From a virus: a DNA stretch of 64,000 bases. Shown in pieces: positions 14,689 to 63,349 of the stretch; position 1 is the first letter of the stretch, and each line of letters begins with the position of its first letter. Where the stretch lies: the IMG/VR virus record IMGVR_UViG_3300045988_117450, positions 28,684 through 92,683 of that record, one strand, 5' to 3'. The notes below the pieces were generated by a model. That model made no database searches. It was given only the letters and a program-made list of their open reading frames with translations, and had not been told where the DNA came from. The translations under genes and the position numbers were made by a program.

Positions 14689-15831
14689 ATGCATAAAGCT
14701 TTCAAATACAGAATATATCCTAATAAGTCTCAGAAGGTGTTGCTTTCTAAGACTTTTGGATGTATCCGTGTAATTTGGAATGCTAATGTCGAATCTTTCA
14801 ATTCTTATGATAAGGATAGTAATCCTAAACCTAAAATCATTATTAAATCTGATTTAATAATCGACAAGCCGTGGTTGAATGAAATCTCTGCCGCTGCTAT
14901 ACAACAAAAGATAAGGGATTTTCAAGAAATTACCAATCAGTTTTTCTCTAAAACAAGAAAGAAGAAAATAGGCAGACCTTCTTTTAAAAAGAAATCTGGA
15001 AACCAATCTTATAGATTACCTAATCAAAAATTCTCATTAAAAGACAATAAGATAAGATTAGAGAAAATAGGATGGGTTAAGATATCTATTGATAGGAATA
15101 TACCTGATAATTCAAAGATGTTGTCATATACGATATCAATGAATTGCTGTGGTCAATATTTCGTTTCTATTCTTGTTGATGTTGTTATACCGAATAAGGG
15201 AAAGACTGGTAAATCAGTCGGAATAGATTTAGGATTGAAATCTTTTGCTACATTGTCTGATGGAGTTGTGATTGATAATATCAAGTTTTTCAGAGAGAAA
15301 CAATCTGAAATAGCTAAAATACAAAGACATTTAAGTAGAAAGAATAAAGGAAGTAACAGACATAGAAAGAATAAAATAAAAATAGCAAGATTGTATAACA
15401 AGATTGCTAATAAGAGAAACAACTTTCTTCATAATGTTACCACTTCGCTTGTAAATAATTATGATGTTATTTGTATAGAAGATTTAAATGTTTCTGGAAT
15501 GTTATCGAATCACAAATTAGCTAAAGCTATATCCGATACAAGTTTCTCAATGTTTAGAAGCATGTTGGAATACAAATGTAATTGGTATGGAAAAGAACTT
15601 GTCGTAATAGACAGGTTTTATCCATCATCAAAAACATGTTCCAAATGCGGATGGAAGAAAGAAGACTTAACTTTATCAGATAGGGTTTTCAAGTGTGAAA
15701 ATTGCGGCATTGAAATAGATAGGGATTTGAATGCTGCAATAAATATACAGAGGGTAGGAGTTGATATCCTCTATAATCGGATGCAGAGGGATGAGGTTAC
15801 GAATCTCAATGAAGCGTCTATAATGGAGTAG
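14689..15831 (+). CDS. tnpB: TnpB / IS605 OrfB-family RuvC-like endonuclease, second distinct family (380 aa)
   Basis: RuvC-I GIDLGLKSFATLSDG, RuvC-II ICIEDLNVSGM, zinc finger CSKCGWKKE...CENCGIEI, RuvC-III DRDLNAAINI. No tnpA nearby; element ends not delimitable from a single copy. Confidence 0.85.
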   Translation: MHKAFKYRIYPNKSQKVLLSKTFGCIRVIWNANVESFNSYDKDSNPKPKIIIKSDLIIDKPWLNEISAAAIQQKIRDFQEITNQFFSKTRKKKIGRPSFKKKSGNQSYRLPNQKFSLKDNKIRLEKIGWVKISIDRNIPDNSKMLSYTISMNCCGQYFVSILVDVVIPNKGKTGKSVGIDLGLKSFATLSDGVVIDNIKFFREKQSEIAKIQRHLSRKNKGSNRHRKNKIKIARLYNKIANKRNNFLHNVTTSLVNNYDVICIEDLNVSGMLSNHKLAKAISDTSFSMFRSMLEYKCNWYGKELVVIDRFYPSSKTCSKCGWKKEDLTLSDRVFKCENCGIEIDRDLNAAINIQRVGVDILYNRMQRDEVTNLNEASIME

Positions 15832-19872: not shown

Positions 19873-22800
19873 ATGGTATCAACGTGTATTATTAAAAGAG
19901 ATAATAAAAAGAAAGTTGTTTCTGTCTCTACCAGATCAGGGGACAGGTCTATGTTATTCGATAAGATAGCATCTATTCCTCTTATGGAAAATAGGGAACG
20001 GGCTACTACTGTTTTTAAAACCGTATTTTCTAATAAGTTCTTAAAGGCTTTTGGTGACTGGAGAAGGAATGTGCCTATCAACAAACAGGCTTACAATAAG
20101 GTAAAATCTAACATCGGCCTTATTCCAGAGACCTATAGAGAAAGGGTGCTGGATAAGGCTTCTAAGATGAGCAACCCTATTCTTGTGTCGAAATCAGATG
20201 CACCTTATGGGATTCAAGAATCAGGCTTTGGATTCTATAGCCAAGATCTGGGTGATAATATTATGTTGGTGGATGCTATGGTTCCGTCAAGGATCTCCGT
20301 GCCGGAAGAACCAGGAATAGACTCAGGGCAGTATCTACAAGATGCTATATCTTCGGACTTCACTCCCGTATCTATGGTACAGGATAATGATGTTAATTAT
20401 ATGGTTATAAAAGACGGTCTTAAGATATTTAGTCCAGAAGAGCTACCAGAAACAGATTCTAATCCTGTGGGTGTAACGTATCAGACTGGAGAACCTCGTT
20501 TGTTTTTTATGAATGATCGTAATCAATTATTTGAAGATTACGGAGAAGCTCTTCGCTCTGGCGGGAATGATATCAGAATAGGATTCTTATCTGGCACCGT
20601 TCAAGAATCTGCCTGGGATGGCGTGGCAGACATTACTTACAAGGCTGGAAAGTATGTCCTTAACAACCCCAAATCTTTTATACCTGTTATGACCGCCTCT
20701 GCTTCCACTTCTTTATCAACAAAAGGTGGGATAATAAACTACCTTATAAAGAAAGGTCTTTTGTCAGGATCCAAGATATTCGATCCGGAAACAAGAAGCT
20801 ATTATCTTACAGGAGAAGGACATGCAGGACAAATTAGACTTTTCAATTCAGCCTTAGCTTATACCGAACTTCGTAATCATTTCAGTTCTGATGTTTCCAT
20901 GAATGATCAAGGCATGATAACCATAAATTCATTGGATAATAGTAAGGTGACTATGAGACTCGCCACCGGAGGAACAGAAAGAGTTAGCAAGGAGCAGATA
21001 AAGAGCGATCTTAAGTCTGGAAGATACAATGAATTGGATGCTAAATACGATCACTTTGATGCGCTTGTAGTTTCATTTATATTAGAAGACAATGATCTTT
21101 ATGCTGATACTAAAGCTAAGATAGTATCGGATTATAGCCAAGAGGAACGTAATCAACGAAATTCTATTGTTGAGATACTGAAAACGCTGGGCGTTAGTGT
21201 CGTTGGCATGACCGATTATATAGAGAAGTACCAAACTAAATACGGACACGAACCTTCTGCTAAAGCATTGGCGGATATTGCCAATAACGTAATAGCAGTC
21301 GGTGAAGATGCTACTTTGTCTGACTTAGTAGAAGAAACAGCCCACTTCCTTGTAGAGGCGTACAGAGATCAGAATGCTGTTGAATCTGTTTTGCAAGACG
21401 TAGAAGGCACTGAAGAATGGAATCAGTATGCAAATCAGTATTATAATACATACGGTAAGGTATATGAAGGAACTGAACTTGACAATGTAGTTAGGAAAGA
21501 AATTCTTGGAAAGATCCTTGCCAGGGAGATGCAGGACAGAACGGCGCCCATAGAGCCCACCTCCTTCCTGGGACGCGTCCGGCAGCTTCTCTCTGGAATC
21601 GTAAACTGGCTTAAATCAGCTTTATCTACCCAAAGACAAGATTTGAATAACGTTATTAAAAACATTCGTGATCTTGCTATTACCGACATAGATAAAGGAT
21701 TTGATACTTCTCTTTTAAAGGATAATGATTTTACATTATACTCTCTTTCCTCTATGAACAAGAACAAGTTTCTTGAGTCTAAGATCCGGGCATTGAGAAA
21801 AACATTGAGAGACTTACGTCAGATAAGCTCTGATAGGGCTGTAACTACATCTATGACCCTTGCTCAACTTAAGACCATAGAAGATAAGATAAATAAGGTA
21901 GAGACCGAAATAGACAAAAATGAGATGGCGGCTGCCATGAATAGCATGATCTCCACAGCCGAAGCTCAGGTCAGATACTTAAGCAATGTAGTAAATACTA
22001 TCCTTCATGGTGATACCAAAGACGGTAAACTTCATTTCAATACCAATGATCGAAAGAACGTAGATATTATCAACAATCAGGTTCTTCCGATCATGAACGA
22101 TCTTCGAGGATATATCCGTAACAGAAGTACCGAATTTGACGAACGTGAAAAGCAAGATTATACAAATAGGATCAATACCGTCATTGCCGACATCAATGGT
22201 ATTCAGTCTGATATTAAATCAGTACAAGATCTTGATGAAAGTACGTTGCTTGACAAGTTAATGAACGAACTTCATGTGCCGGCAGATAAGGTAAAGAAAG
22301 TAAAAGAGTTCTTTGATAAAGTCCAACACGATGTGTCCTGGATAAGTAGGTGGTTTGGTATATTAGAACATTCTTCCAGCCCGTTTAATAACGCTCTTGG
22401 AGCTATGATTGCCAAAGACAATTATAATGCGATGGTGAATGCCCAGCCAGCCATATCCGACTTCCTGGCATATGCGAAAAAACATGGTTTCAATAAATCT
22501 GAATTTGAAAAACTGCTTCAGAAAGTAGACGGCAAGACTTCTAATTATCTTCGTAGTGCTCTTGATATGGCTAAATACGATCGTAATAAGAAGCTGGCGC
22601 AGATGCGAGCGTTTGCAACTGCCATGAACATAGAGATATCAGAAGAAGAAATCAATGATGTGGTTGACAATAACCGTAATTATGTGTTTAAAAGAGAAGT
22701 AGTTGACAAGGACGGAAATACGGTTACTGAGAACGCTAAATTCAAACCTTCTTCTGATAGGGTTAATACCGACATCTTTACCATCGAGCAGGAAAGGATT

Positions 22801-25800
22801 TATACAGAACAGATGGAGAAGTGGGATGCTGAAAATTCAGAACTGGAATTTAGTGAAAGTTATGCCACAAGAATGGAATCCATATACAAAAAGGCTGAAG
22901 AAGAATTGGGGTATCCGGTTTCTCAAACAACTAAAGAATATCTTAATGCTCTTTCCCGGCAAAAACGGATATTGAGGCAACCTTTTATTGATAGCAATGG
23001 TAATTTTGATGAAGTTGCTTACTTCAAGAGCAGTAATTATGAAGAAGAAGGACTGCTTCGTAAACAACGTAAGGAAGCAGCTTCAGAATACATATATGTA
23101 GGAACCAGAAGAGTCGATAAAACCGGTGATCAACTCAAGATGGCTAAAGAAATACAAGCTATAAATGAAGTATGGAGAAAAGAATCAAATAATGTTACTA
23201 ATGCCGTATCAGAATCATTTTTGGAAAGATTGAGAACGATTCAGCGTGAGTCTGGAGGGGAGGCTGCACTGAGAACGCTTATGTTAGGAGGACACCTGGC
23301 TTTTAATGATCAGTTTTGGAATGATATAGAGTCAGATCAGTCGGCACGCACCGAATCAAACAACAAGGCTTCGTATCTTAAAATGGCGCATGATATCATT
23401 AATTCTACGACAAGTGATAGAGATGCGACAGACGTAGAAGCTATTGTGAAAGATATAGAAAAAAACAGGGCTATCATCAAGGAAATAATTGGGAATAACC
23501 GCGATGTGGCTGACATCGGAGAAATCAATGAAGCGACATTTACCTCATCTGAAAGAGATGCTTTTAGGGCTGCATCTGAAGCTATTGAAACCGACTACGC
23601 TATTTTAATAGATTATGCTAAGATGGTGGGTCTTGAAGATATTGATAAATACCTTACTAAAAGCAGTAAGGCTGAAAACGAAGTCAATCAATCTTATTTA
23701 AATGCTCTTGCTGACTCCAAGGAAGTGGAATGGAAGTTTGTGCAACGTCATACTACGGCAAAGAAAGCAAAAAGGATTCAAGCCTTAAGGGATAAACTAT
23801 TTAAGGCTGCTGATAACCGATATTTGTTTACTGTATCTGAAACCAACTACTTGTCAGAAAAGCTTGGAATAAGCAAAGAATTAGACGGTAGAGATTTTAG
23901 GAATGCTGTCAATACTAAGATGGCCAGCTTGTTTTTAAATAACACAAGAGAATCAGGTATAGAAGAGGCTAATGCTATTGTTAATGAATTTGCCAGAAGT
24001 CAAGTCTTTTCATATTACAAACGCATGGCTCCTACCGGATATGCGGCTATGCTTGGTAAAATAGGTCGAGGTGAGATAGACGTGGCACAGATGGTTAAAG
24101 ACGTACAGAACGGGACATCCACACAAGATTATGGTATGAATATATCGTACCTGTCTTTCGACCCTGCAAGAGCGTGGGTGGCTGAATCTGAAGCTGAAAA
24201 TAGCGGTCGTAACCCAGATTATGTAAAAGATCATGGGTATGGTTATCGTATGCCCAAGAAGAGCCTGTATCGTGATGAATCGTATTTCAATGACTTCGGC
24301 ATTAGATATGATGCTGATGGTAATGAGATTGCTACTAAAAACGTAGAGCAATGGAATATGATTCAAAAACTTAAGGAAATAAAAAGACAATCCCTTTCCT
24401 TATACAAAGAGCAGAGCCCCAATTTGTATGCTATTCCACAGATATCCAAACAAGATATAGAACGTATGGAGGGATTGGGTATCAACTTCAAAAATACGGT
24501 TCGTAATTTTGTATCAGATCTCTGTCTGGACAGAGTAGACGATTCTCTATACGGTAAAACCAGACAAGGGGAAGTATATGATCCAGAAGATAGGATTAGG
24601 TCTATACCTAAATACTACATATATGAATTAGAGAACCAAGATGACGTATCTCATGATTTTGGTTATTCTTATTCGATGCTTATGATGCAATCATCGTTAT
24701 ACAACGAAAAGCAGAAGTCTATAGAGCTTGCCCAAGGACTGGAGCAGATGTTACTGAATAAGCAATTTGAAGGCGGTAAGAAAGCTGAGGCAACTCAAGC
24801 ATACCAGATGTTTAGAGACTTCTTTAATGACCATTATTATGGCATTAGGATGAACACCAAGAAACTTACGGTTAACATCGGTGGATACACGATAGATCTT
24901 ACAAGAATTATGATGGCCGTTGAAAGGTTTATGTCGGTCATGAACTTAGCGCTGTCCCCGTTTGTGGCAGCTACCGGCGCTCTGACAGGTCATATTAACC
25001 TCATCATGGAATCTGCCGTAGGACAATATATAAGCAAAGATTCCCTTAAATATGCATCGGCTGAGTTTTCACGTCTTGCGCCATCTTGTATAGCAGAAAC
25101 CGGAGACATAGATAGAAAAAGCAAATTATATGTCATAGGTGAGAGAATGGGGATATTCAATATCCGAAATCGTATGTATGGTGCCGGATATAATAGGGTG
25201 GCCCGGACCTTAATGCGTTCACCGATGTATGCTTTTATGGAAATCATGAACTACCCTCTTGATCCGCAGGTTATGATCGCTACTATGGATAACGTTCGTT
25301 ATTACAAAGGTCGGTTCTACACGTTCCAGGATTTCAAGATGGAAAAAGAACGCAATAAAGAACAGAGCACCATAAAAAGAGAATGGGATGCATTAAAAGA
25401 TCGTACTTTATGGAGTATGGTAGATGTCGTAGACGGCAAGGTGGTTGTGAAACCAGGATCGGGTGTTACTGTTGAGGAGGTTGAAACTCAGATGGCTATA
25501 ACCCGAAATCAGGTTCGTAGCCTGTCTCAGATATGTAACGGATCTTTGAATGAAGAAAACCGGACCGCCGCATCCCGCAACTGGATAGCCAGGTTCATGA
25601 CTGCCCACCGAGGATGGCTGGTGCTGGCGGCTCAACGTCTGTGGAAAAGAAGGGGATTCAATTTCCAGACAATGCAAGAAGAGGAAGGGCTGTCAATTAC
25701 GTTAAAGAATATGATAGCTAAAACATTTAGCTTAGCTTCCGAGCCTGGTATGAAAAATATCATAGATGCCTGGAACGAAAATAAAGATAAGATGGGTGAG

Positions 25801-26289
25801 GTGGAAAAGACTAATCTTAAACGCCTCAGTGTTTATGCCGGCACGTTCCTCATCATGCAGGCCGTGTCTATGCTTCTTGCCGGATGGCGTGATGATGATG
25901 AAAACGAGGAAAGCTGGCTTACTCAATTCGGATCCTATGTAGGATTCAGAACCATAAATGAAATAGCATCTCAGATGCCGTTTATTATGGAGCTTAATGT
26001 GGTGGATATCATTAATGACCCTTTTGTTATGGGACGGAAACTGAAGGATCTCACCGATCTCAGGAACTACTCACTTGATAAAGTAACATCTGGTACATAC
26101 AAAGGTGAGTCTAAGTTATTTAGACAACTCGCTAAACAGACGTTTATCAAACAATGGTATAACATTAAGACGCCGGAAGACGTAGCACGTGCCTATAACT
26201 GGTGGCAGCAGACGAACAACAAGTCAATGATGTTTTTCATCGGTGCCACTCCTGATTCAGAAGGAGACGATGATGTGAGCTACAAGTAG
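19873..26289 (+). CDS. giant hypothetical protein (2138 aa); probable virion, tail or ejected protein, function unknown
   Basis: 6.4-kb ATG ORF, coiled-coil-rich, contains in-frame GC-rich islands (21530-21596, 25558-25645); terminator 26427-26470 downstream. No RNAP DxDGD motif (only YDADGN). Confidence 0.6.
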   Translation: MVSTCIIKRDNKKKVVSVSTRSGDRSMLFDKIASIPLMENRERATTVFKTVFSNKFLKAFGDWRRNVPINKQAYNKVKSNIGLIPETYRERVLDKASKMSNPILVSKSDAPYGIQESGFGFYSQDLGDNIMLVDAMVPSRISVPEEPGIDSGQYLQDAISSDFTPVSMVQDNDVNYMVIKDGLKIFSPEELPETDSNPVGVTYQTGEPRLFFMNDRNQLFEDYGEALRSGGNDIRIGFLSGTVQESAWDGVADITYKAGKYVLNNPKSFIPVMTASASTSLSTKGGIINYLIKKGLLSGSKIFDPETRSYYLTGEGHAGQIRLFNSALAYTELRNHFSSDVSMNDQGMITINSLDNSKVTMRLATGGTERVSKEQIKSDLKSGRYNELDAKYDHFDALVVSFILEDNDLYADTKAKIVSDYSQEERNQRNSIVEILKTLGVSVVGMTDYIEKYQTKYGHEPSAKALADIANNVIAVGEDATLSDLVEETAHFLVEAYRDQNAVESVLQDVEGTEEWNQYANQYYNTYGKVYEGTELDNVVRKEILGKILAREMQDRTAPIEPTSFLGRVRQLLSGIVNWLKSALSTQRQDLNNVIKNIRDLAITDIDKGFDTSLLKDNDFTLYSLSSMNKNKFLESKIRALRKTLRDLRQISSDRAVTTSMTLAQLKTIEDKINKVETEIDKNEMAAAMNSMISTAEAQVRYLSNVVNTILHGDTKDGKLHFNTNDRKNVDIINNQVLPIMNDLRGYIRNRSTEFDEREKQDYTNRINTVIADINGIQSDIKSVQDLDESTLLDKLMNELHVPADKVKKVKEFFDKVQHDVSWISRWFGILEHSSSPFNNALGAMIAKDNYNAMVNAQPAISDFLAYAKKHGFNKSEFEKLLQKVDGKTSNYLRSALDMAKYDRNKKLAQMRAFATAMNIEISEEEINDVVDNNRNYVFKREVVDKDGNTVTENAKFKPSSDRVNTDIFTIEQERIYTEQMEKWDAENSELEFSESYATRMESIYKKAEEELGYPVSQTTKEYLNALSRQKRILRQPFIDSNGNFDEVAYFKSSNYEEEGLLRKQRKEAASEYIYVGTRRVDKTGDQLKMAKEIQAINEVWRKESNNVTNAVSESFLERLRTIQRESGGEAALRTLMLGGHLAFNDQFWNDIESDQSARTESNNKASYLKMAHDIINSTTSDRDATDVEAIVKDIEKNRAIIKEIIGNNRDVADIGEINEATFTSSERDAFRAASEAIETDYAILIDYAKMVGLEDIDKYLTKSSKAENEVNQSYLNALADSKEVEWKFVQRHTTAKKAKRIQALRDKLFKAADNRYLFTVSETNYLSEKLGISKELDGRDFRNAVNTKMASLFLNNTRESGIEEANAIVNEFARSQVFSYYKRMAPTGYAAMLGKIGRGEIDVAQMVKDVQNGTSTQDYGMNISYLSFDPARAWVAESEAENSGRNPDYVKDHGYGYRMPKKSLYRDESYFNDFGIRYDADGNEIATKNVEQWNMIQKLKEIKRQSLSLYKEQSPNLYAIPQISKQDIERMEGLGINFKNTVRNFVSDLCLDRVDDSLYGKTRQGEVYDPEDRIRSIPKYYIYELENQDDVSHDFGYSYSMLMMQSSLYNEKQKSIELAQGLEQMLLNKQFEGGKKAEATQAYQMFRDFFNDHYYGIRMNTKKLTVNIGGYTIDLTRIMMAVERFMSVMNLALSPFVAATGALTGHINLIMESAVGQYISKDSLKYASAEFSRLAPSCIAETGDIDRKSKLYVIGERMGIFNIRNRMYGAGYNRVARTLMRSPMYAFMEIMNYPLDPQVMIATMDNVRYYKGRFYTFQDFKMEKERNKEQSTIKREWDALKDRTLWSMVDVVDGKVVVKPGSGVTVEEVETQMAITRNQVRSLSQICNGSLNEENRTAASRNWIARFMTAHRGWLVLAAQRLWKRRGFNFQTMQEEEGLSITLKNMIAKTFSLASEPGMKNIIDAWNENKDKMGEVEKTNLKRLSVYAGTFLIMQAVSMLLAGWRDDDENEESWLTQFGSYVGFRTINEIASQMPFIMELNVVDIINDPFVMGRKLKDLTDLRNYSLDKVTSGTYKGESKLFRQLAKQTFIKQWYNIKTPEDVARAYNWWQQTNNKSMMFFIGATPDSEGDDDVSYK

Positions 26290-26426: not shown

Positions 26427-26470
26427 ACCAGTTCTCAGTCAGCGATGATAGAGAACTGGTTTCTTTTGTT
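26427..26470 (+). terminator. rho-independent terminator (ACCAGTTCTC / GAGAACTGGT, 14-nt loop, T-rich tail)
   Basis: Perfect 10-bp inverted repeat 26427-26436 / 26451-26460 followed by TTCTTTTGTT. Confidence 0.55.
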
Positions 26471-26480
26471 ATGAAAAAAA

Positions 26481-26969
26481 ATGCTATCTTGCAAAAAAAA
26501 TAAAATAATGAGAAGAAGGTTTTTGTCATATGATTTATTTCAGACGATAATTCCCGTTTTCGCCGTTAGTATATCTGCACCTCTTTCCACTTGGAAAAAT
26601 GCCGTTCATATACTTACCACAAGATCGAGGGAAAGTGGTGGTATAAATGTTGGAAAATATGCGGTTGATATTGCCAGTTCCAATTACGTGTGTACTATGG
26701 GAGATACCCAGAGTATAGATTGCCATATGACTCCATCCGGTTCCGGCATCAATTGCTATTTCAATAATGGAAATGTCACAGGGGATATTTATCTTACATT
26801 TTATCTGGAGGATGTTCTGTACTATTTCTATATAACAGATAAGACAAACGATTCAGATCTTCGTCCTCAACTTTCTATGGATGTTGATAAATATTTTATA
26901 GATACTATACATATAATAAAGACAATAAGTGATTTTGTTGCACCTGATACTTACTTAAAAGGAATATGA
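26481..26969 (+). CDS. hypothetical protein with an N-terminal hydrophobic/signal-like segment (162 aa)
   Basis: ATG ORF; stop TGA overlaps the ATG of the next (frameshifted) gene as ATGA. Confidence 0.5.
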   Translation: MLSCKKNKIMRRRFLSYDLFQTIIPVFAVSISAPLSTWKNAVHILTTRSRESGGINVGKYAVDIASSNYVCTMGDTQSIDCHMTPSGSGINCYFNNGNVTGDIYLTFYLEDVLYYFYITDKTNDSDLRPQLSMDVDKYFIDTIHIIKTISDFVAPDTYLKGI

Positions 26970-27699
26970 GAAGAAGATTTGAAACATCATTAAAAATATA
27001 TGAATATCAAATAGTTAGCAACTGTATAGGGGGGGGGTAATCATTGATGATGAAATAGTCGGTACCGTTCCACAAAGTGGTGTATTTACCTTTCTTTCTA
27101 TAAAACAACGTCTGGGTTCTATAAGTATCCAAGGAGGAGTCCCATCTAATACAAAAGAGACTATCAGCGAACAAACAGAATCTACGAAAGAGCTTGTAGA
27201 GAAGGATGACATTAAACTTATTATAGGTAGAGTAGAATCTCCTTCTTTAGGTTTTTTGATACGTCTTTATTTGCCTGACCAGTTTACAGTGAGAGAACAA
27301 GAAAAGAAATATGTAACATATCGTGAAATACTATATACTGCTCCTGGTAAAAAATACAATGTAAACAATGATAATCCTATTGTAATGAATTACACCAGTG
27401 AGCAACATGAGTACCCAGATACGATAATAGGAGATCCTGTAGATAAGATCTACGAAACCGGCTCAGATACATCATGGAGTTGCGAACTTGTTGAAACTAA
27501 TATTGAACCAGAGCCTTCTCCTACATCTTTTCAAAATTTGACCCTAACATCAATAGTCAGACCTATTATAACCAGGTTGGGTCAAGGCACTTTATATGCC
27601 ACCTATTCCGCTCATATAAAACTTGAATTATATTCTAAAGCGTATGGAAGTATAGGTGAATATGTGGTAACATCGGAGACAGTTACGTTCGACAATTAA
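26966..27699 (+). pseudogene. gene split by a 1-nt frameshift in a G9 homopolymer (27029-27037). Frame 2 runs ATG 26966 to TAA 27038-27040; frame 1 is open from 27019 to 27699 with no canonical start before TTG 27256.
   Basis: Direct reading: ATG AGA AGA AGA TTT ... AAC TGT ATA GGG GGG GGG TAA. One extra G fuses the two frames into a continuous ~245-aa ORF MRRRFETSLKIYEYQIVSNCIGGGVIIDDEIVGTVPQ...VTFDN. The 79 upstream codons in frame 1 contain no stop and no ATG/GTG/TTG. Confidence 0.6.
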
Positions 27700-27701
27700 A
27701 A

Positions 27702-27746
27702 CAATTCTGCATATAGAATCTATACTATCATCTATATGCAGAATTG
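27702..27746. terminator. bidirectional terminator-like hairpin (perfect 15-bp arms CAATTCTGCATATAG / CTATATGCAGAATTG, 15-nt loop) at the convergence of the plus and minus gene blocks
   Basis: Perfect inverted repeat between the plus-strand stop at 27699 and the minus-strand stop at 27761. Confidence 0.5.
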
Positions 27747-27760
27747 TATATATAACTGCC

Positions 27761-28462: not shown

Positions 28463-28696
28463 TTATTTAATTTTTACGATCTTAATGGAATCTCCTATAT
28501 TGTATTCCCCTTGGTGCCCAACGAATTTTATTAACCTATTACTGTGAGCTATTGAAACTCTTTCGTCTTCACCATAATACATTATACATCCACCACGTAA
28601 AGGTTTTAAATCGTATATAACCCATCCGTCATTAACTTGATTATCATATTTGCATGATGATAATACAAGTGTCATCAATAAAACAAAATATTTCAT
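28463..28696 (-). CDS. small lipoprotein (77 aa)
   Basis: Signal peptide with lipobox MKYFVLLMTLVLSS-C. Confidence 0.5.
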   Translation of the reverse strand: MKYFVLLMTLVLSSCKYDNQVNDGWVIYDLKPLRGGCIMYYGEDERVSIAHSNRLIKFVGHQGEYNIGDSIKIVKIK

Positions 28697-31947: not shown

Positions 31948-33180
31948 ATGAGATTAGTATATAAGTTTAACATAGGACAAAATGAAAATATATCATCTTT
32001 GTGCAAGATTAGCAACAACTTGTACAACCAAGCATTGTATATTTTCAGAGAAACACTTTCTAAAGAAGATAAGTGGTTATCCTATTTTGAACTTGATGCT
32101 ATCATGAAGAATACCAAGAACTTAGATGGAGACATTAATTACAGATTACTAAAGGCGCAATGTTCTCAACAAGTTCTTCGTATTCTTGATAAAAACATTA
32201 AAGGTTACTACAAATCGGTCCAAGATTACAAGAAAAATTATAATAAGTATAGGGAAAAACCTGGTCTTCCAAATTACAAAAAGAGAGGTTATGAGTTCAA
32301 TTTGTATTACACGAGTCAGAGTTGCAAAATAAAAGATGGGAAAATAATCCTATCAAAAGATATTTCAATACCCATTCCTCAATATGAGAAGTATTCTGAT
32401 TTGATAAAAGATTTCAAACAGATTAGAATAAAACCATTAGCATGTGGATATAAAATAGAAATCATTTATGAGGTAAAAGATGCTGAAGTATCTAAAGGTA
32501 GAGAAGAGAAGATTGCTTCCATTGATTTAGGAATAGACAATCTTGCAACTCTTATCAGTGAAGATTTTACTGTTCTATTTAGTGGCAAATTTGTTAAATC
32601 ATACAATCAATTGTTTAACAAAGCACTTGCTAAATTAAATAGCATAAAGGATTTACAAAAGATAAAAGGAACAACAAAACGAATAAAGAAATTATATTAT
32701 GATAGAGAACAGTACATAGAAGATGTCTTTCATAAAATCAGTAGAAAGATAGTTAATTTACTTATCGATTCCAAGATAACAAAATTAATTGTAGGCTACA
32801 ACAAGGGATGGAAAACTGGAGTAAACATGGGTAAAAGGAATAACCAGAAGTTTACACAAATCCCTTTTGCGAGATTGGTGAGTTACTTAGAATATAAATG
32901 TGAATTAGCTGGTATTGAAATAGTTATTCATGAAGAGTCATATACTTCAAAATGTGATTCATTAGCATTTGAGAAGATAGGAAAACATGAAAACTATTTA
33001 GGAAAAAGGAAGAACCGAGGATTGTTTCAATCCTCGGTAGGAAAACTCATAAATGCAGACGTAAATGGAGCATTAAACATTATGAGAAAAGTAGTCGGTG
33101 ATTCCTGTGAATCAATTCGTAGGATAATCGATAGAGGGTTATTGTTTAACCCGGTAAGGATTACGAATGTATTTTGCTAA
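31948..33180 (+). CDS. tnpB: TnpB-like / IS605 OrfB-family protein, third distinct family (410 aa)
   Basis: RuvC-I SIDLGIDNLATLISED; ...HEESYTSKCDSL...C; C-terminal ADVNGALNIMRK (RuvC-III). IS891/IS1136/IS1341-like architecture. Upstream perfect palindrome ATGTATC-TTA-GATACAT (31884-31900). No tnpA. Confidence 0.7.
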   Translation: MRLVYKFNIGQNENISSLCKISNNLYNQALYIFRETLSKEDKWLSYFELDAIMKNTKNLDGDINYRLLKAQCSQQVLRILDKNIKGYYKSVQDYKKNYNKYREKPGLPNYKKRGYEFNLYYTSQSCKIKDGKIILSKDISIPIPQYEKYSDLIKDFKQIRIKPLACGYKIEIIYEVKDAEVSKGREEKIASIDLGIDNLATLISEDFTVLFSGKFVKSYNQLFNKALAKLNSIKDLQKIKGTTKRIKKLYYDREQYIEDVFHKISRKIVNLLIDSKITKLIVGYNKGWKTGVNMGKRNNQKFTQIPFARLVSYLEYKCELAGIEIVIHEESYTSKCDSLAFEKIGKHENYLGKRKNRGLFQSSVGKLINADVNGALNIMRKVVGDSCESIRRIIDRGLLFNPVRITNVFC

Positions 33181-43071: not shown

Positions 43072-44066
43072 CCATGCCCCGGCAGGATCTCTGGGTGGAT
43101 TGTATTAGTAAGCTCTTCCATACTAACTTGCCTTACCTTCAGTATATGATGAAACACCAGTCCGGCTGTCCTGAATGATGTTTTGTTTTCAGTTTTAAAC
43201 CGGTCAAGAGTCTGATACCAGTCTTTCCCAAATATCATATACTTATCCAGTCCGTATCTGCGAGGATTATGCAAGCCTATCATTAACGTACATAGTTGCC
43301 CCAGCGTATCAGACTGATAAAAGTCAGAAAGACGGGGAGGCTGCTCTTGAGGGCTTTTTATCCTTCCTTCTATCTCTCTGTTGAATTGGGATATGATGAG
43401 GAAAAATATGTTTTTATACACTAATTTGGCTTCGTTCATAACCGCCACCAAATCATCTATAGCCGACTTAGGATCTAACCCCATTCTTTTTATCAAAGCA
43501 ATATGATCGACTTTAAATATTATAAGACGTTTGTCCTTGTGTCTGGTAGCTATATGATACACAGCCGCCTCAAACTCTTTTACCGTACACGGAGCGTCGA
43601 TGTATATTATATTATTTCTGATTTCACCTTGAAGGATTTCAAACATCCTCATCTCTTCTACTGTATTAGAATCTTGCCTTCTTAATATTTCAGGAGCCCG
43701 TTTTTTCATATCCTGGCTCATTCTACGAAGAAGAAGATCTTGAGGATTCATTTCGAACTCGCAATTGACAAGAAAATAATCTTCTGCCTGCGGGTTGATC
43801 ATCGGATTCATCACATTTTCCAATATCTTTTGGGCCACATACGATTTACCCACAGATGGCCGAGCTCCTATGGCAATAGCATGCTGAGGGAAAATACCTC
43901 CAAGCAAAGCCTCGTCAATATAATCGTATCCGGTTTTAGCGGGGATAAGTTCTCCCCGCCTGTATTTTAAGATATTCTCATACGCCTCTTCCATAACCTG
44001 TTTAGAGGTCTTGAATATCCTTCTTATATCTATCCTATTTGCTATCTCCTCTTGCATTTTTGTCAC
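42933..44066 (-). CDS. DnaB-like replicative helicase, RecA-fold C-terminal domain (377 aa)
   Basis: Walker A GARPSVGKSY, Walker B-like LIIFKVDH, DnaB-C-like arrangement. Confidence 0.6.
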   Translation of the reverse strand: MTKMQEEIANRIDIRRIFKTSKQVMEEAYENILKYRRGELIPAKTGYDYIDEALLGGIFPQHAIAIGARPSVGKSYVAQKILENVMNPMINPQAEDYFLVNCEFEMNPQDLLLRRMSQDMKKRAPEILRRQDSNTVEEMRMFEILQGEIRNNIIYIDAPCTVKEFEAAVYHIATRHKDKRLIIFKVDHIALIKRMGLDPKSAIDDLVAVMNEAKLVYKNIFFLIISQFNREIEGRIKSPQEQPPRLSDFYQSDTLGQLCTLMIGLHNPRRYGLDKYMIFGKDWYQTLDRFKTENKTSFRTAGLVFHHILKVRQVSMEELTNTIHPEILPGHGWMYGEGGTKFVNPNQPPTPPKLYTVEDVTNNQDQEQEVKEEQSVY

Positions 44067-44313
44067 CTTTCGTATCCGACTTGGATCCCCTATTAGCTTT
44101 TACTGATTTATACCTAAGACCGTTCTTGGTATGAGAACAATCCTTGCCTTTCCTCCAGCCCTTGCCCTTCTTCTTGTCCGTTTCGTAGTTTTTACGACCA
44201 AGTTCCCGGCGTTTGGCTTTCTGTTCCGGTCTGGCATTTATCTCCTTGTCTTTTTTAGCCTTTTTCTTCCTGGCTTCGGGATGAGTCCTGTAGTACTCTG
44301 TCGATCTACCCAT
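44035..44313 (-). CDS. highly basic low-complexity protein (92 aa)
   Basis: Lys/Arg-rich throughout. Confidence 0.4.
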   Translation of the reverse strand: MGRSTEYYRTHPEARKKKAKKDKEINARPEQKAKRRELGRKNYETDKKKGKGWRKGKDCSHTKNGLRYKSVKANRGSKSDTKGDKNARGDSK

Positions 44314-44365
44314 GTGCTTATATTTTTTTTGATTAATAATAGCACAAAGATAGGCAATTCGCGCC

Positions 44366-44932
44366 CTATTTCAACCTGCCGTAGCTCATATCAGGATCAC
44401 ACCAAACATATCCGTCTTTCTCATCATGAAGATACTCAGGACATCCCCTGCATGCACTACTCCCTGACACTATTTGATTATTCTTATTAGGACACTTATC
44501 TCCAGGTTTATGCCATTCTATCCTCGAACCTGATCGTTCTTTATTTATATGACAGAACTGAAAGACTTTCCCCATCGTCTTCTCACCGAACATGCCTATA
44601 TGCGTATATTCTTCCGGTATAGAGAGAAATTCTGATAAATCTTTATACATCCTTTCCTGTTCTTCCGGCGTAGACCACAGTCTGTCAAGTTCGGCATGGA
44701 CTCTTATTTTAAGAGACCTTAGTGATGGGCCCGCAAGCCGGCCTTTAGCTTTTCCCTTATTCGGCCCTGATTCATGAACACCGACATAAGCGTTGCATGG
44801 TTTACACATCATAACCATCCCTAAGCCTTTTCTGCTATATATTTTATCGGCATTGACCAACTCGGTTTCTCTTCCGCAATAAGGGCAAATTTCGCCTCTT
44901 AAAATCCGTTGTTGCCGCACATTGAGTTCCAT
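44366..44932 (-). CDS. zinc-ribbon-containing hypothetical protein (188 aa)
   Basis: CPYCG...CKPC and C-terminal CRGC motifs. Confidence 0.5.
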   Translation of the reverse strand: MELNVRQQRILRGEICPYCGRETELVNADKIYSRKGLGMVMMCKPCNAYVGVHESGPNKGKAKGRLAGPSLRSLKIRVHAELDRLWSTPEEQERMYKDLSEFLSIPEEYTHIGMFGEKTMGKVFQFCHINKERSGSRIEWHKPGDKCPNKNNQIVSGSSACRGCPEYLHDEKDGYVWCDPDMSYGRLK

Positions 44933-45174
44933 ACTCTATCCTTTTGTTTCTCTTTAAACTTTTCATACAAACTGCTTTCAGTTTCCATTTCCGAGATCTC
45001 CACCTCTACGTCCTCTCTTTTGAAAATTACTTTCTTGGCTGTAGGATACGCACATTTAGAGATACGAATAGCATTACGAATAGCATAAACAAAATACGTT
45101 TCTGGTGATGATTCGATCACCACTACCTCGTTTAAAGTGTTTTTATAATTTTCCATGTTATCTACTTGCTTCAA
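44899..45174 (-). CDS. hypothetical protein (91 aa)
   Basis: ORF in the minus block. Confidence 0.4.
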   Translation of the reverse strand: MKQVDNMENYKNTLNEVVVIESSPETYFVYAIRNAIRISKCAYPTAKKVIFKREDVEVEISEMETESSLYEKFKEKQKDRVWNSMCGNNGF

Positions 45175-45511
45175 TTACATACCCTGGATTATCTTCACAT
45201 GCCTCTTTGTATTCGATAAGAAACTTAAGAAATGAATCATAAGACCCCCATCCATTTTCTGGTTCGTATCTCAAAAGACTCTTTCTCTTGGATATCATAA
45301 TATATATACCTTTTGTGAGTATCTTCGCCATCTCTTTGGTATCTATTTCCCTACCCAATTCTTCCGGTCTCCAAACATAATCGTACAGCGTTTCTTTATT
45401 TTCTGATACGAATATTTTTTGTGCCATCTTGTTCATGTTGTGGGTGATGTTTGTAACCCATTTACGATCCTCTTCTTTCTTCTTGCTCTTAATATAAACG
45501 TCCAGGCTCAT
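45158..45511 (-). CDS. hypothetical protein (117 aa)
   Basis: ORF in the minus block. Confidence 0.45.
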   Translation of the reverse strand: MSLDVYIKSKKKEEDRKWVTNITHNMNKMAQKIFVSENKETLYDYVWRPEELGREIDTKEMAKILTKGIYIMISKRKSLLRYEPENGWGSYDSFLKFLIEYKEACEDNPGYVIEASR

Positions 45512-46502
45512 AATATTTTTCTTTTACTTTATTATTAATTATCAAATCTGCCACATCATCTCCGTCTCCTACATTTTCAACATTTTGAAGATAGTCCGAT
45601 ACTTTTATCCTTGACTTCATCATCATCCCATCTATCTTTTTACTCCATGTGTCAAATGCTTGTCCTTTGTCCGGAAAAGCTACAGTCTTTCTATCTTTTA
45701 AAACATCTATCACTTCCGGTCTTAAATTCTGCAACCCACCGGTAGCTACAAACAACTCATCTGGTTTATTCACGGCGCATATAATAGCCGTCTTTTCTGA
45801 CTCCACCAAATTAACTACCTTATCCGGATACTGGCTTAGAAGATGTTCTCCAAACAGGCATTGTCTAAACAAGAAGTCTCTTGCATGCAACGAGTGATAA
45901 AACATGACATGAGGTCGCTCATTGTCACCATCTTTTTCCTTCACTCTTTTTACATCAATCTCATTCCCCTGGCTGTCGGTCTTTATGTAAAAATCCATAA
46001 TCTTGCCGGTTCTACATACAAAGTCCTTATCTATCTGCCAGAATATACAACACCCTTTCCATCCCCATAAGTCCATTGTTCCAACATGATACCTTCTAAA
46101 CACGTCAGATACCCTTTCTTTTCCCCATAGAGACGATAAAAACCTAAATACAGTATTTCTATCATCTGGAACCACAGTCCTCTCAAACTCGCTAAAAGGT
46201 ATGTAATTTATAACATCAGGGTTTACAGGAGGACGATAAGCTCTTATGCATTTATTTCCTGAAATCCAAAGATCTTTATCACCTACATCCTTGCCGGTAG
46301 GTCGTTTATCGTAACCGCAAGTCCGTTCATGATCGCATCTTCCGAACTCGTTTCCAACAACCTGACCGGTCGCCACATCAATATAAGGGGTAAGGCACCG
46401 GCTTTTCCCGCAAGCCGGGCAGGTTAGCTTCATTCGGCTCCTGCCAGGCCTGCGGTCAAGTTGAAACCGAGGTACGTTTTCGTATTTTCTAAAATCAAGC
46501 AT
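45489..46502 (-). CDS. putative DNA primase-like protein (N-terminal zinc ribbon plus TOPRIM-like core; 337 aa)
   Basis: CPACGK...CDHERTC zinc-binding motif; later LVESEKTAIICAV ... VATGG ... AFPDKG resembling TOPRIM E/DxD elements; located between the helicase and nuclease genes. Confidence 0.4.
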   Translation of the reverse strand: MLDFRKYENVPRFQLDRRPGRSRMKLTCPACGKSRCLTPYIDVATGQVVGNEFGRCDHERTCGYDKRPTGKDVGDKDLWISGNKCIRAYRPPVNPDVINYIPFSEFERTVVPDDRNTVFRFLSSLWGKERVSDVFRRYHVGTMDLWGWKGCCIFWQIDKDFVCRTGKIMDFYIKTDSQGNEIDVKRVKEKDGDNERPHVMFYHSLHARDFLFRQCLFGEHLLSQYPDKVVNLVESEKTAIICAVNKPDELFVATGGLQNLRPEVIDVLKDRKTVAFPDKGQAFDTWSKKIDGMMMKSRIKVSDYLQNVENVGDGDDVADLIINNKVKEKYYEPGRLY

Positions 46503-62881: not shown

Positions 62882-63349
62882 TTATGGTATTATTTGACTG
62901 TATGCAGACTTTTCCATGTACACAACACTATGCTCCTGTCCAAGTATTTTCTTTTCTGCCTCTTTCTTTATCGCACAATATCTCCCTGTACGATACGGAT
63001 TCTTTTGATCTGATCCATCCTCGACTTCGATAATAAAACAGCCTCCGTCATCTATTATCTTTTTGCAATCGTCACATACTCCGCCCGTGCATATATGATG
63101 CGGCGCCTGACCTTTGATATTATTTCCTAATAAAGCAATCCCCATCTCTTCGCCACATATCATGCAGACTTCTATAGACGGATTCAATCCGTGCTCTGGG
63201 TGTAATGTGATACCATCTTTCATTTTCTTTCCTCCTTTGTTTTTAATGTTGTGTGAGATCGCCGGAATCGAACCGACCTGCTGCACCATGAATCCCATAA
63301 AGCAAACGCTCCGATCTTCGCAGACGGGAGCGTTCTGTCTAAAGCACAA
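62882..63349 (-). CDS. Cys-rich hypothetical protein (probable start Met at 63223 with AGGAGG upstream; ~113 aa)
   Basis: CMICGEE...C..C..C motifs; the N-terminal extension in the track runs into tRNA-like element B. Confidence 0.45.
   Translation of the reverse strand: MCFRQNAPVCEDRSVCFMGFMVQQVGSIPAISHNIKNKGGKKMKDGITLHPEHGLNPSIEVCMICGEEMGIALLGNNIKGQAPHHICTGGVCDDCKKIIDDGGCFIIEVEDGSDQKNPYRTGRYCAIKKEAEKKILGQEHSVVYMEKSAYSQIIP
63252..63340 (-). ncRNA. tRNA-like 3' fragment B: T-arm (GTCGG-TTCGATT-CCGGC) plus acceptor 3' strand GATCTCA; no matching 5' half located
   Basis: Plus strand reads TGAGATC-GCCGG-AATCGAA-CCGAC (63253-63276); shares the ...ATCTCACA-AACA-T tail with fragment A. Confidence 0.4.

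Follow-up and report, generated by a model that had tools for sequence, protein, structure and literature searches.

Organization of the split gene

The 64,000-nt stretch of viral DNA analysed here (the window; positions 28,684 to 92,683 of IMG/VR record IMGVR_UViG_3300045988_117450) carries a late gene that is divided between two reading frames by a run of guanines, and we refer to this gene as the switchable gene. Its 5′ segment (26966..27040, plus strand) begins with an ATG at 26966-26968 that overlaps the TGA of the upstream open reading frame (ORF) at 26967-26969 as ATGA. This frame encodes 24 codons (MRRRFETSLKIYEYQIVSNCIGGG) and is ended by a TAA at 27038-27040, immediately behind a tract of exactly 9 G (27029..27037, plus strand), and the same 24 residues form the N-terminus of full-length homologues (P0001-P0020). 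The -1 frame is open from 27019, just past a TAG, and runs for 79 codons lacking any ATG, GTG or TTG before reaching TTG 27256 and, finally, a TAA at 27697-27699. The 3′ segment of the gene lies in this frame (27037..27699, plus strand) and consists of 220 codons, from GTA 27037 to the stop, which encode the rest of a conserved N-terminal module and a variable body predicted to be all-beta. On the ATGA overlap, the G9 tract, and the course of the two frames, we agree with a preliminary description made from the DNA letters. Its proposal that one added G would create a single continuous ORF is also correct, with the adjustment that the product is 244 aa in length rather than approximately 245. 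The tract occupies codons 22-25 of the 244, and a length of G10 restores the frame in the sub-family to which the window belongs.

Within the window, which has a GC content of 37%, the G9 tract is the sole run of G or C of 7 or more, the next longest being 6. GGG is the rarest glycine codon (11.8%), such that three in a row have a probability of approximately 0.0016 at this usage, and GGT or GGA is used in the window's two remaining Gly-Gly-Gly tripeptides. More than 100 related loci have the tract at this codon. Contingency loci are recognized by homopolymers of about 8 or more inside an ORF or promoter, a description that fits the G9 tract, and such repeats usually occupy the 5′ end of the ORF, which is where the tract lies here.

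Homologues and tract lengths in related phages

When searched against 5.8 billion proteins, the fused product yields 118 homologues, approximately 100 of which are full length (240-247 aa) and read NCIGGGV via a G10 tract. This supports the earlier suggestion that the functional product is the long fused protein: the 24-codon head is conserved and runs directly into the remainder of the protein, rather than being an unrelated upstream peptide ahead of an independent downstream start. Truncated database entries begin where a gene caller would start in out-of-frame genomes (MYRGGV...), and a 147-aa form corresponds to the ORF at TTG 27256 of the window. The first ~60 residues, including the tract, are conserved across sub-families, while the remaining ~180 residues are 35-40% identical or unalignable (P0112, P0115, P0118). 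By sequence comparison, the protein is modular, with exchangeable bodies attached to a conserved head.

To follow the tract at the DNA level, we combined a pattern scan with an alignment-based scan of IMG/VR, giving 80 loci from gut phage contigs of 80-155 kb (the best 80 of 94 tblastn matches). Following TGY ATA, the tract is G8 in 15 of these loci, G9 in 28, G10 in 26, and G11 in 2, and interrupted alleles also occur (G5AG4, G6AG3, G5TG4, G7AGG, G8AGG, G8AAG, and G6C). The frame can be classified in 77 loci, including the window, and it is maintained in 35 (hereafter, ON) and lost in 42 (OFF), with 30 of the latter requiring a -1 shift and 12 a +1 shift. In the sub-family with TGTTATG after the tract, G9 is the in-frame length and G8 the broken length. 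A second set, drawn from gut metagenome assemblies in ENA and picked only by a 21-nt pattern at the tract, comprises 14 in-frame and 20 out-of-frame loci as judged by the tract, with one G12 among all. Nine ENA contigs with a stated coverage of at least 10x are OFF and two are ON, and two of the OFF contigs are at 150x and 154x. In Logan, assemblies of two different runs contain the same G9 OFF allele. A G15 allele at locus L094 was not counted as a length variant, as its context is rearranged and it may be an assembly join. Overall, at least five sub-families, with bodies that are 35-40% identical or unrelated, retain the tract, and it is preserved against codon and composition bias, as expected of a contingency locus.

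Rate of tract change and controls for assembly error

The strongest single line of evidence comes from genes that differ at the tract alone, as judged over a span of ~890 nt that covers the entire ORF together with 100 nt before it and 60 nt after it. Over this span, the window is 100% identical to loci L015 and L020 save for G9 versus G10. Likewise, L032 (G10) is otherwise identical to L064, L065, and L068 (G8), and L025 (G10) is otherwise identical to L044 (G6AG3). Of 46 pairs of loci whose genes show at most 3 differences, 31 carry different tract alleles. A neighbour-joining tree computed from 6,814 flank columns of 59 loci requires a minimum of 17 ON/OFF changes, compared with 18.9 expected when the states are shuffled, and the gene's own tree (55 sequences) requires at least 13, compared with 17.4. 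These differences between otherwise identical genes and the number of changes on both trees, all read from consensus assemblies, suggest that the tract mutates roughly a thousandfold faster than an individual nucleotide position, with both gains and losses of the frame.

As states scattered in this manner are also expected from random assembly error, we checked three controls. In the adjacent gene for a giant 2138-aa virion structural protein (19873..26289, plus strand), none of the 75 loci (241 kb) has a broken ORF, although 75 A7, 119 A6, 13 G6, and 6 G7 runs are present. Separately assembled contigs that are identical or nearly so share the same tract length (L064/L065, L029/L047, and L058/L059), and the high-coverage contigs are mostly OFF, as described above. 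Nearby A/T homopolymers had been considered as a control and were replaced by the integrity of the giant ORF, as the long A/T runs are all non-coding and are variable too.

Selection on the downstream frame

The downstream frame of ~220 codons is intact in all 42 of the 42 OFF loci in the IMG/VR set, and about 15 of the 18 evaluable OFF copies in the ENA set are otherwise intact. Across 55 sequences of the major sub-family, the 251 inferred substitutions include 0 stops, where 9.0 are expected under neutrality (P = 1e-4), and length variants come only in multiples of 3. Codon positions 1, 2, and 3 account for 112, 78, and 61 changes, respectively. The ratio of nonsynonymous to synonymous substitution rates (dN/dS) reaches 0.50 for the window's clade and 0.99 for the major family, compared with 0.04 for the neighbouring giant gene. 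Within the major family, dN/dS is 1.65 for ON-ON pairs and 0.80 for OFF-OFF pairs. Amino-acid changes cluster around residues 166-175 and 196-205, with the latter falling in a long coil of the structural model described below. The downstream frame is therefore maintained, yet its amino acids diversify fast, and the excess of first- over third-position changes, along with the dN/dS of ON-ON pairs, appears to indicate positive selection rather than neutrality.

The substitutions are transition-dominated (mostly G>A, C>T, T>C, and A>G), with a rate of 0.25 per A versus ~0.6 per G or C. We considered mutagenesis by a diversity-generating retroelement (DGR) as the source of this variability and rejected it, as there is no adenine bias and the DGR of this phage group lies elsewhere, although the window was not searched for a template repeat or reverse transcriptase. 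The synonymous divergence (dS) of the switchable gene is 0.02-0.06, which is 5-7 times below the value of 0.18-0.25 for the adjacent giant gene in the same genomes (L014-L093), and the window gene is identical to that of L020 although their flanks differ by 2.1%. The low dS and the occurrence of an identical gene between diverged flanks suggest that the cassette has spread recently between phage lineages by recombination.

Interpretation of the tract and its alternatives

Considering these observations together, we think it likely that the G run is a hypermutable polyG contingency locus, in which slippage adds or removes a G, in-frame lengths are ON and others OFF, and both states keep being renewed. 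As the phage DNA is copied, the polymerase would slip on the G run, which would thereby gain or lose a G. A G10 tract would keep the frame and give the full 244-aa protein, whereas with G9, as in the window, or with G8, G11, or G12, translation would end after 24-45 codons. If slippage is frequent and reversible within a lineage, phage populations would keep yielding both types, either of which may be the majority in a given gut, and the protein's presence would be useful on some hosts and costly on others. The preliminary description had raised a G9/G10 ON/OFF switch by slipped-strand mispairing as one of several possibilities, and this proposal is strengthened by the range of G8-G12 in relatives, with over half out of frame and some of the genes otherwise identical.

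Several observations weigh against this interpretation. The selection of the IMG/VR loci favours intact copies, and the IMG/VR and ENA sets partly overlap (e.g., L136 and L004 are the same 78,708-bp contig). Within-population heterogeneity and true reversibility are read from consensus assemblies only. The closest complete genome, csAssE-Sib, does not contain the switchable gene, and other small ORFs fill the slot. Considering also the decayed copies, the gene is dispensable, and some OFF states may be simple loss. Such decay includes a 307-nt deletion in the copy at L138, a second frameshift at L116 (1.4x coverage), and the case of L120 (ENA, 28.7x), which is in frame at the G tract and broken at a poly-A (Lys-Lys-Lys) ~25 codons later. 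A dN/dS near 1 in the major family also fits relaxed constraint. Finally, non-coding A/T runs of 8-10 nearby vary in length as well, from which it follows that these phages are generally unstable at long homopolymers wherever selection permits.

Some of these points are shared by an explanation based on decay alone, in which a dispensable gene breaks often at its G run and the OFF alleles are recent pseudogenes that play no part in any adaptive switch. The absence of the gene from csAssE-Sib, the copy with an internal deletion, the two with second frameshifts, the dN/dS of ~1 in the major family, and the variable non-coding A/T runs would all be accommodated. We nonetheless regard this explanation as unlikely: the OFF copies in the IMG/VR set, and most of those in ENA, have no other lesion, stops are absent where 9 are expected, indels occur only in multiples of three, and the codon-position and ON-ON dN/dS values given above point to positive selection and not to neutrality. 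Moreover, a costly hot spot composed of the rarest glycine codon would be erased by synonymous mutation, yet it is retained across sub-families with unrelated bodies, and the scatter of states over the tree requires repeated regain as well as loss. Still less probable is that the G9 tract is a homopolymer miscall, with every true tract being in frame. Several sequencing platforms do make errors in long G runs, and it is consensus sequences that we examined, but 55-60% of assemblies are out of frame, including two-base (G8) differences and the contigs at 150x and 154x, and independent ENA and Logan assemblies of different runs (L096 and L097) have the same OFF allele. With no frameshift in 241 kb of the adjacent gene, even at its G6, G7, and A7 runs, and with separately assembled contigs that concur on tract length, the sequencing error that the preliminary description allowed for is very unlikely.

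A further alternative is recoding, in which slippage by RNA polymerase on the G run, or a ribosomal shift at GGG GGG beside the TAA stop, yields some full-length protein from G8, G9, or G11, with tract length tuning the dose. A G9 run directly before a stop is indeed slippage-prone, as the P-site tRNA-Gly can re-pair perfectly in the -1 frame, and expression from OFF alleles would explain why over half of assemblies are out of frame while the downstream frame is intact and under selection. Fast reversible switching at the DNA level accounts for the intact frames equally well, however, and we consider recoding quite unlikely on several grounds. Approximately 45% of genomes already have the gene in frame and would gain nothing from a shift, and OFF alleles occur in both -1 and +1 forms (30 and 12, respectively), which no single programmed ribosomal frameshift could serve. 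In addition, the 24-aa zero-frame product is unlikely to be functional, and RNA folding of 27038-27130, immediately 3′ of the tract, reveals no stimulatory structure (-10 kcal/mol, compared with -14.1 on average for shuffled sequences, z = +1.44; 192 of 200 shuffles fold more strongly). For transcriptional slippage, the efficient cases on record are mostly at A/T runs. The programmed -1 ribosomal frameshift, which had been an alternative in the preliminary description, is rejected, as the arrangement is not conserved among homologues and the stimulator is absent. The lack of a conserved DNA arrangement also argues against programmed transcriptional slippage, but it does not argue against leaky expression.

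Predicted fold and possible role of the protein

An AlphaFold model of the fused protein, based on a 69-sequence alignment, is confident and all-beta (predicted local distance difference test, pLDDT, of 93.7; predicted template modelling score, pTM, of 0.64), with the tract-encoded Gly22-24 placed around the loop that joins the first two strands. Fold-search matches of the model are to Ig-like, adhesin, or pilin domains, and we take the fast-diversifying bodies to be Ig-like beta-sandwich domains. Profile searches of PHROGs, Pfam, PADLOC, and the PDB give no match for either the switchable protein or the 153-aa product of the upstream ORF, and tblastn of the switchable protein against 50,697 phage records also gives none. 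We refrain from assigning it as a receptor-binding or tail-fibre protein, as we find no homology or characteristic fold that links it to a known receptor-binding protein, nor a demonstrated virion location. Based on its position at the end of the structural block, its conserved head with exchangeable bodies, and its diversifying selection, our best suggestion is that the virion carries the protein on its surface as a dispensable accessory, for example an auxiliary receptor-binding protein or an adhesin/decoration protein. It would presumably take part in host interaction, and Ig-like decoration proteins are comparable in principle.

Phage identity and gene surroundings

The giant protein encoded upstream (phrog_37651, E 2e-76) is 95.8% identical over 100% of its length to that of csAssE-Sib (OR575929.1, 151 kb, human gut), an epsilon crAss-like phage of the proposed genus Epsilonunovirus (PMC11054128). 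From this identity and the same flanking gene order, we assign the window to the epsilon crAss-like phages, abundant in the human gut, and probably to this proposed genus; by membership in this group, its host is likely a member of the Bacteroidota. More distant relatives of the giant protein are structural proteins of the Cellulophaga phages phi17:2 and phi4:1 and of the crAss-like phages cr118_1, cr52_1, and cr56_1. In the csAssE-Sib record, the homologue of this ORF is annotated as two overlapping coding sequences (103085-103930 and 103830-109487), and the tblastn match is likewise in two pieces, which may reflect a frameshift or an annotation split in that record.

The giant gene is conserved and precedes a variable cassette slot. 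The two are separated by an imperfect hairpin (26427..26460) with 15-nt arms that are 87% complementary, followed by a T-rich stretch. Directly before the switchable gene is the 153-aa ORF (26508..26969, plus strand) whose stop overlaps the ATG of that gene. It starts with MRRRF, and its true start is likely ATG 26508 rather than 26481. Upstream of this ATG are two A8 runs (26474-26481 and 26493-26500) that are 8 to 10 long among relatives. The 153-aa ORF has a homologue in csAssE-Sib (110324-110773), and is otherwise confined to the clade of the window itself; L014, L016, and L022 lack part of it, and in most relatives the switchable gene directly follows the intergenic region.

The switchable gene is the last of a ~90-kb plus-strand late/structural block. 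Two nt past its stop is a perfect 17-bp inverted repeat with a 13-nt loop (27701..27747), located at the junction of the late block with a convergent replication block on the minus strand. This repeat is probably a bidirectional terminator, although a scan for consensus promoters and terminators, which was uninformative overall, did not call the hairpin because its stem is AT-rich. Elsewhere in the window, we observe two inserted TnpB/IS605 OrfB-like ORFs (phrog_506) at 14689-15831 (E 1.7e-126) and 31948-33180 (E 1.2e-42), and csAssE-Sib has such elements as well, at other positions. A tRNA scan of the 64-kb window found none.

In some rearranged alleles, the junction falls at the G run. In two IMG/VR loci (L067 and L086), a csAssE-Sib-like 5′ end (MRRRFQIGMG) is joined via G5 or G9 to a major-family body, and in L094 (Logan ERR7341099), the middle of the 153-aa ORF is joined via G15 to a body. 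These could be products of recombination at the run or assembly joins.

A second G tract and genes beginning with MRRRF

The csAssE-Sib genome contains a non-coding G11 tract at 63256-63266 (L099:13256-13266), 18 nt before the ATG of a 240-aa Gly_rich_2 (PF21722) gene, and this is the sole run of G or C of 7 or more in the 150 kb scanned. We find this second tract in 13 IMG/VR relatives (L101-L113), where it is G7 in one, G8 in two, G9 in eight, and G10 in two, and where it lies 17-20 nt upstream of the ATG of a Gly_rich_2 protein of 240-260 aa that starts with MRRRF. In L109, the Gly_rich_2 gene is broken by an A6-to-A7 change. The same start, MRRRF (ATGAGRMGRMGRTTY), is found in several small ORFs of the late block with otherwise unrelated bodies, namely at 26508 and 26966 in the window and at 63285, 64017, 109702, and 110324 in csAssE-Sib, and it might serve as an N-terminal tag or as a common linker for initiation or recombination.

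Both of the long G runs in these genomes, and there are no others, are located at small late genes with the MRRRF start, which favours functional elements over accidents. A joint reading, which we put forward tentatively and do not favour, is that the epsilon crAss-like phages possess a 'phasome' in which at least two polyG tracts control exchangeable MRRRF late proteins, giving combinatorial virion accessories with a graded dose rather than pure ON/OFF. If so, the accessory combinations among progeny would match the phase-variable capsules of their Bacteroidota hosts, and slippage of the polymerase or the ribosome could still provide weak expression from the out-of-frame alleles that make up the majority in nature.

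Comparison with known systems

The closest parallel among phages is with the Fletchervirus phages of Campylobacter. Sorensen and colleagues reportedly described in 2021 that these phages have intragenic polyG tracts of ~8-12, in which frame-shifting length changes produce mixed populations differing in a host-interaction protein, and their genomes are said to carry several such long polyG runs. As in Fletchervirus, we observe a polyG run inside a phage gene whose length changes shift the frame, consistent with bet-hedging against variable host surfaces. Unlike Fletchervirus, the phages described here are Crassvirales-like with a presumed Bacteroidota host, and they have AT-rich genomes with one or two long G runs. 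Furthermore, the switch is proposed here from comparative metagenomics, and its protein is a candidate rather than a demonstrated receptor-binding protein. In Bacteroidota hosts, phase variation is mostly achieved by invertible promoters and not by polyG. The report on hypermutable tracts of Fletchervirus (Sorensen et al. 2021, Cell Rep 35:109214) is cited in two papers (PMC12823448, PMC10877375).

In phages T2 and T4, experiments show that homopolymers in ORFs undergo reversible +/-1 frameshifts at 10^3-10^4 times point-mutation rates as a form of bet-hedging. These loci are mostly A runs of 6-9 at more than 100 sites per genome, with mutant frequencies of ~1e-4 to 1e-3 per stock, and they are under-represented in tail-fibre genes (Gomez, Barrick and Waters 2025, bioRxiv 10.1101/2025.10.21.683753). 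The locus described here differs in being one dedicated G9-G10 run that is conserved across sub-families, with an out-of-frame consensus in over half of natural populations. In Campylobacter, Haemophilus, and Neisseria, contingency loci in environment-facing surface genes are turned ON and OFF by slipped-strand mispairing. The tract shares with their polyG/polyC loci a repeat near the 5′ end of the ORF that is kept against codon bias, a fast-evolving target, and occasional interrupted, 'locked' alleles. Unlike the bacterial loci, the replicon is a virus with phage-encoded replication proteins, and the switch would act on the content of progeny virions and late genes rather than on the cell surface. 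There is also a resemblance to the lambda G/GT tail chaperone, in that two overlapping frames of late genes meet at a slippery homopolymeric sequence. True programmed -1 sites, however, have a fixed out-of-frame arrangement in which both products are used, whereas here the tract is found in frame, -1, and +1, the short product is 24 aa, and no stimulator accompanies it.

Within the epsilon crAss-like group itself, diversification is known from a DGR that targets a C-type-lectin receptor-binding protein by adenine-specific mutagenesis (csAssE-Sib 43837-45894; PMC11054128). The two systems occur in the same phage group and have the same apparent purpose of diversifying a host-interaction protein, but the switchable gene has ordinary transition-dominated substitutions with no A bias. 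Homopolymer slippage and phase variation are not mentioned in PMC11054128 or in Yutin et al. 2021, the latter of which uses 'frameshift' once, for the disrupted RNA polymerase genes of the Zeta group, and a full-text literature search combining crAss-like, homopolymer, and phase variation returned no paper relevant to crAss-like phages. As DGRs are the known answer to diversification in the epsilon group, a conserved polyG switch would be a second and much simpler device. It would also have consequences for annotation: automatic pipelines will call the gene broken or truncated in most genomes, and several truncated entries already exist in databases. The mechanism is already known from Campylobacter and the T-even phages, and what would be new here is its presence in a crAss-like lineage, as a single conserved tract with an OFF majority that coexists with a DGR.

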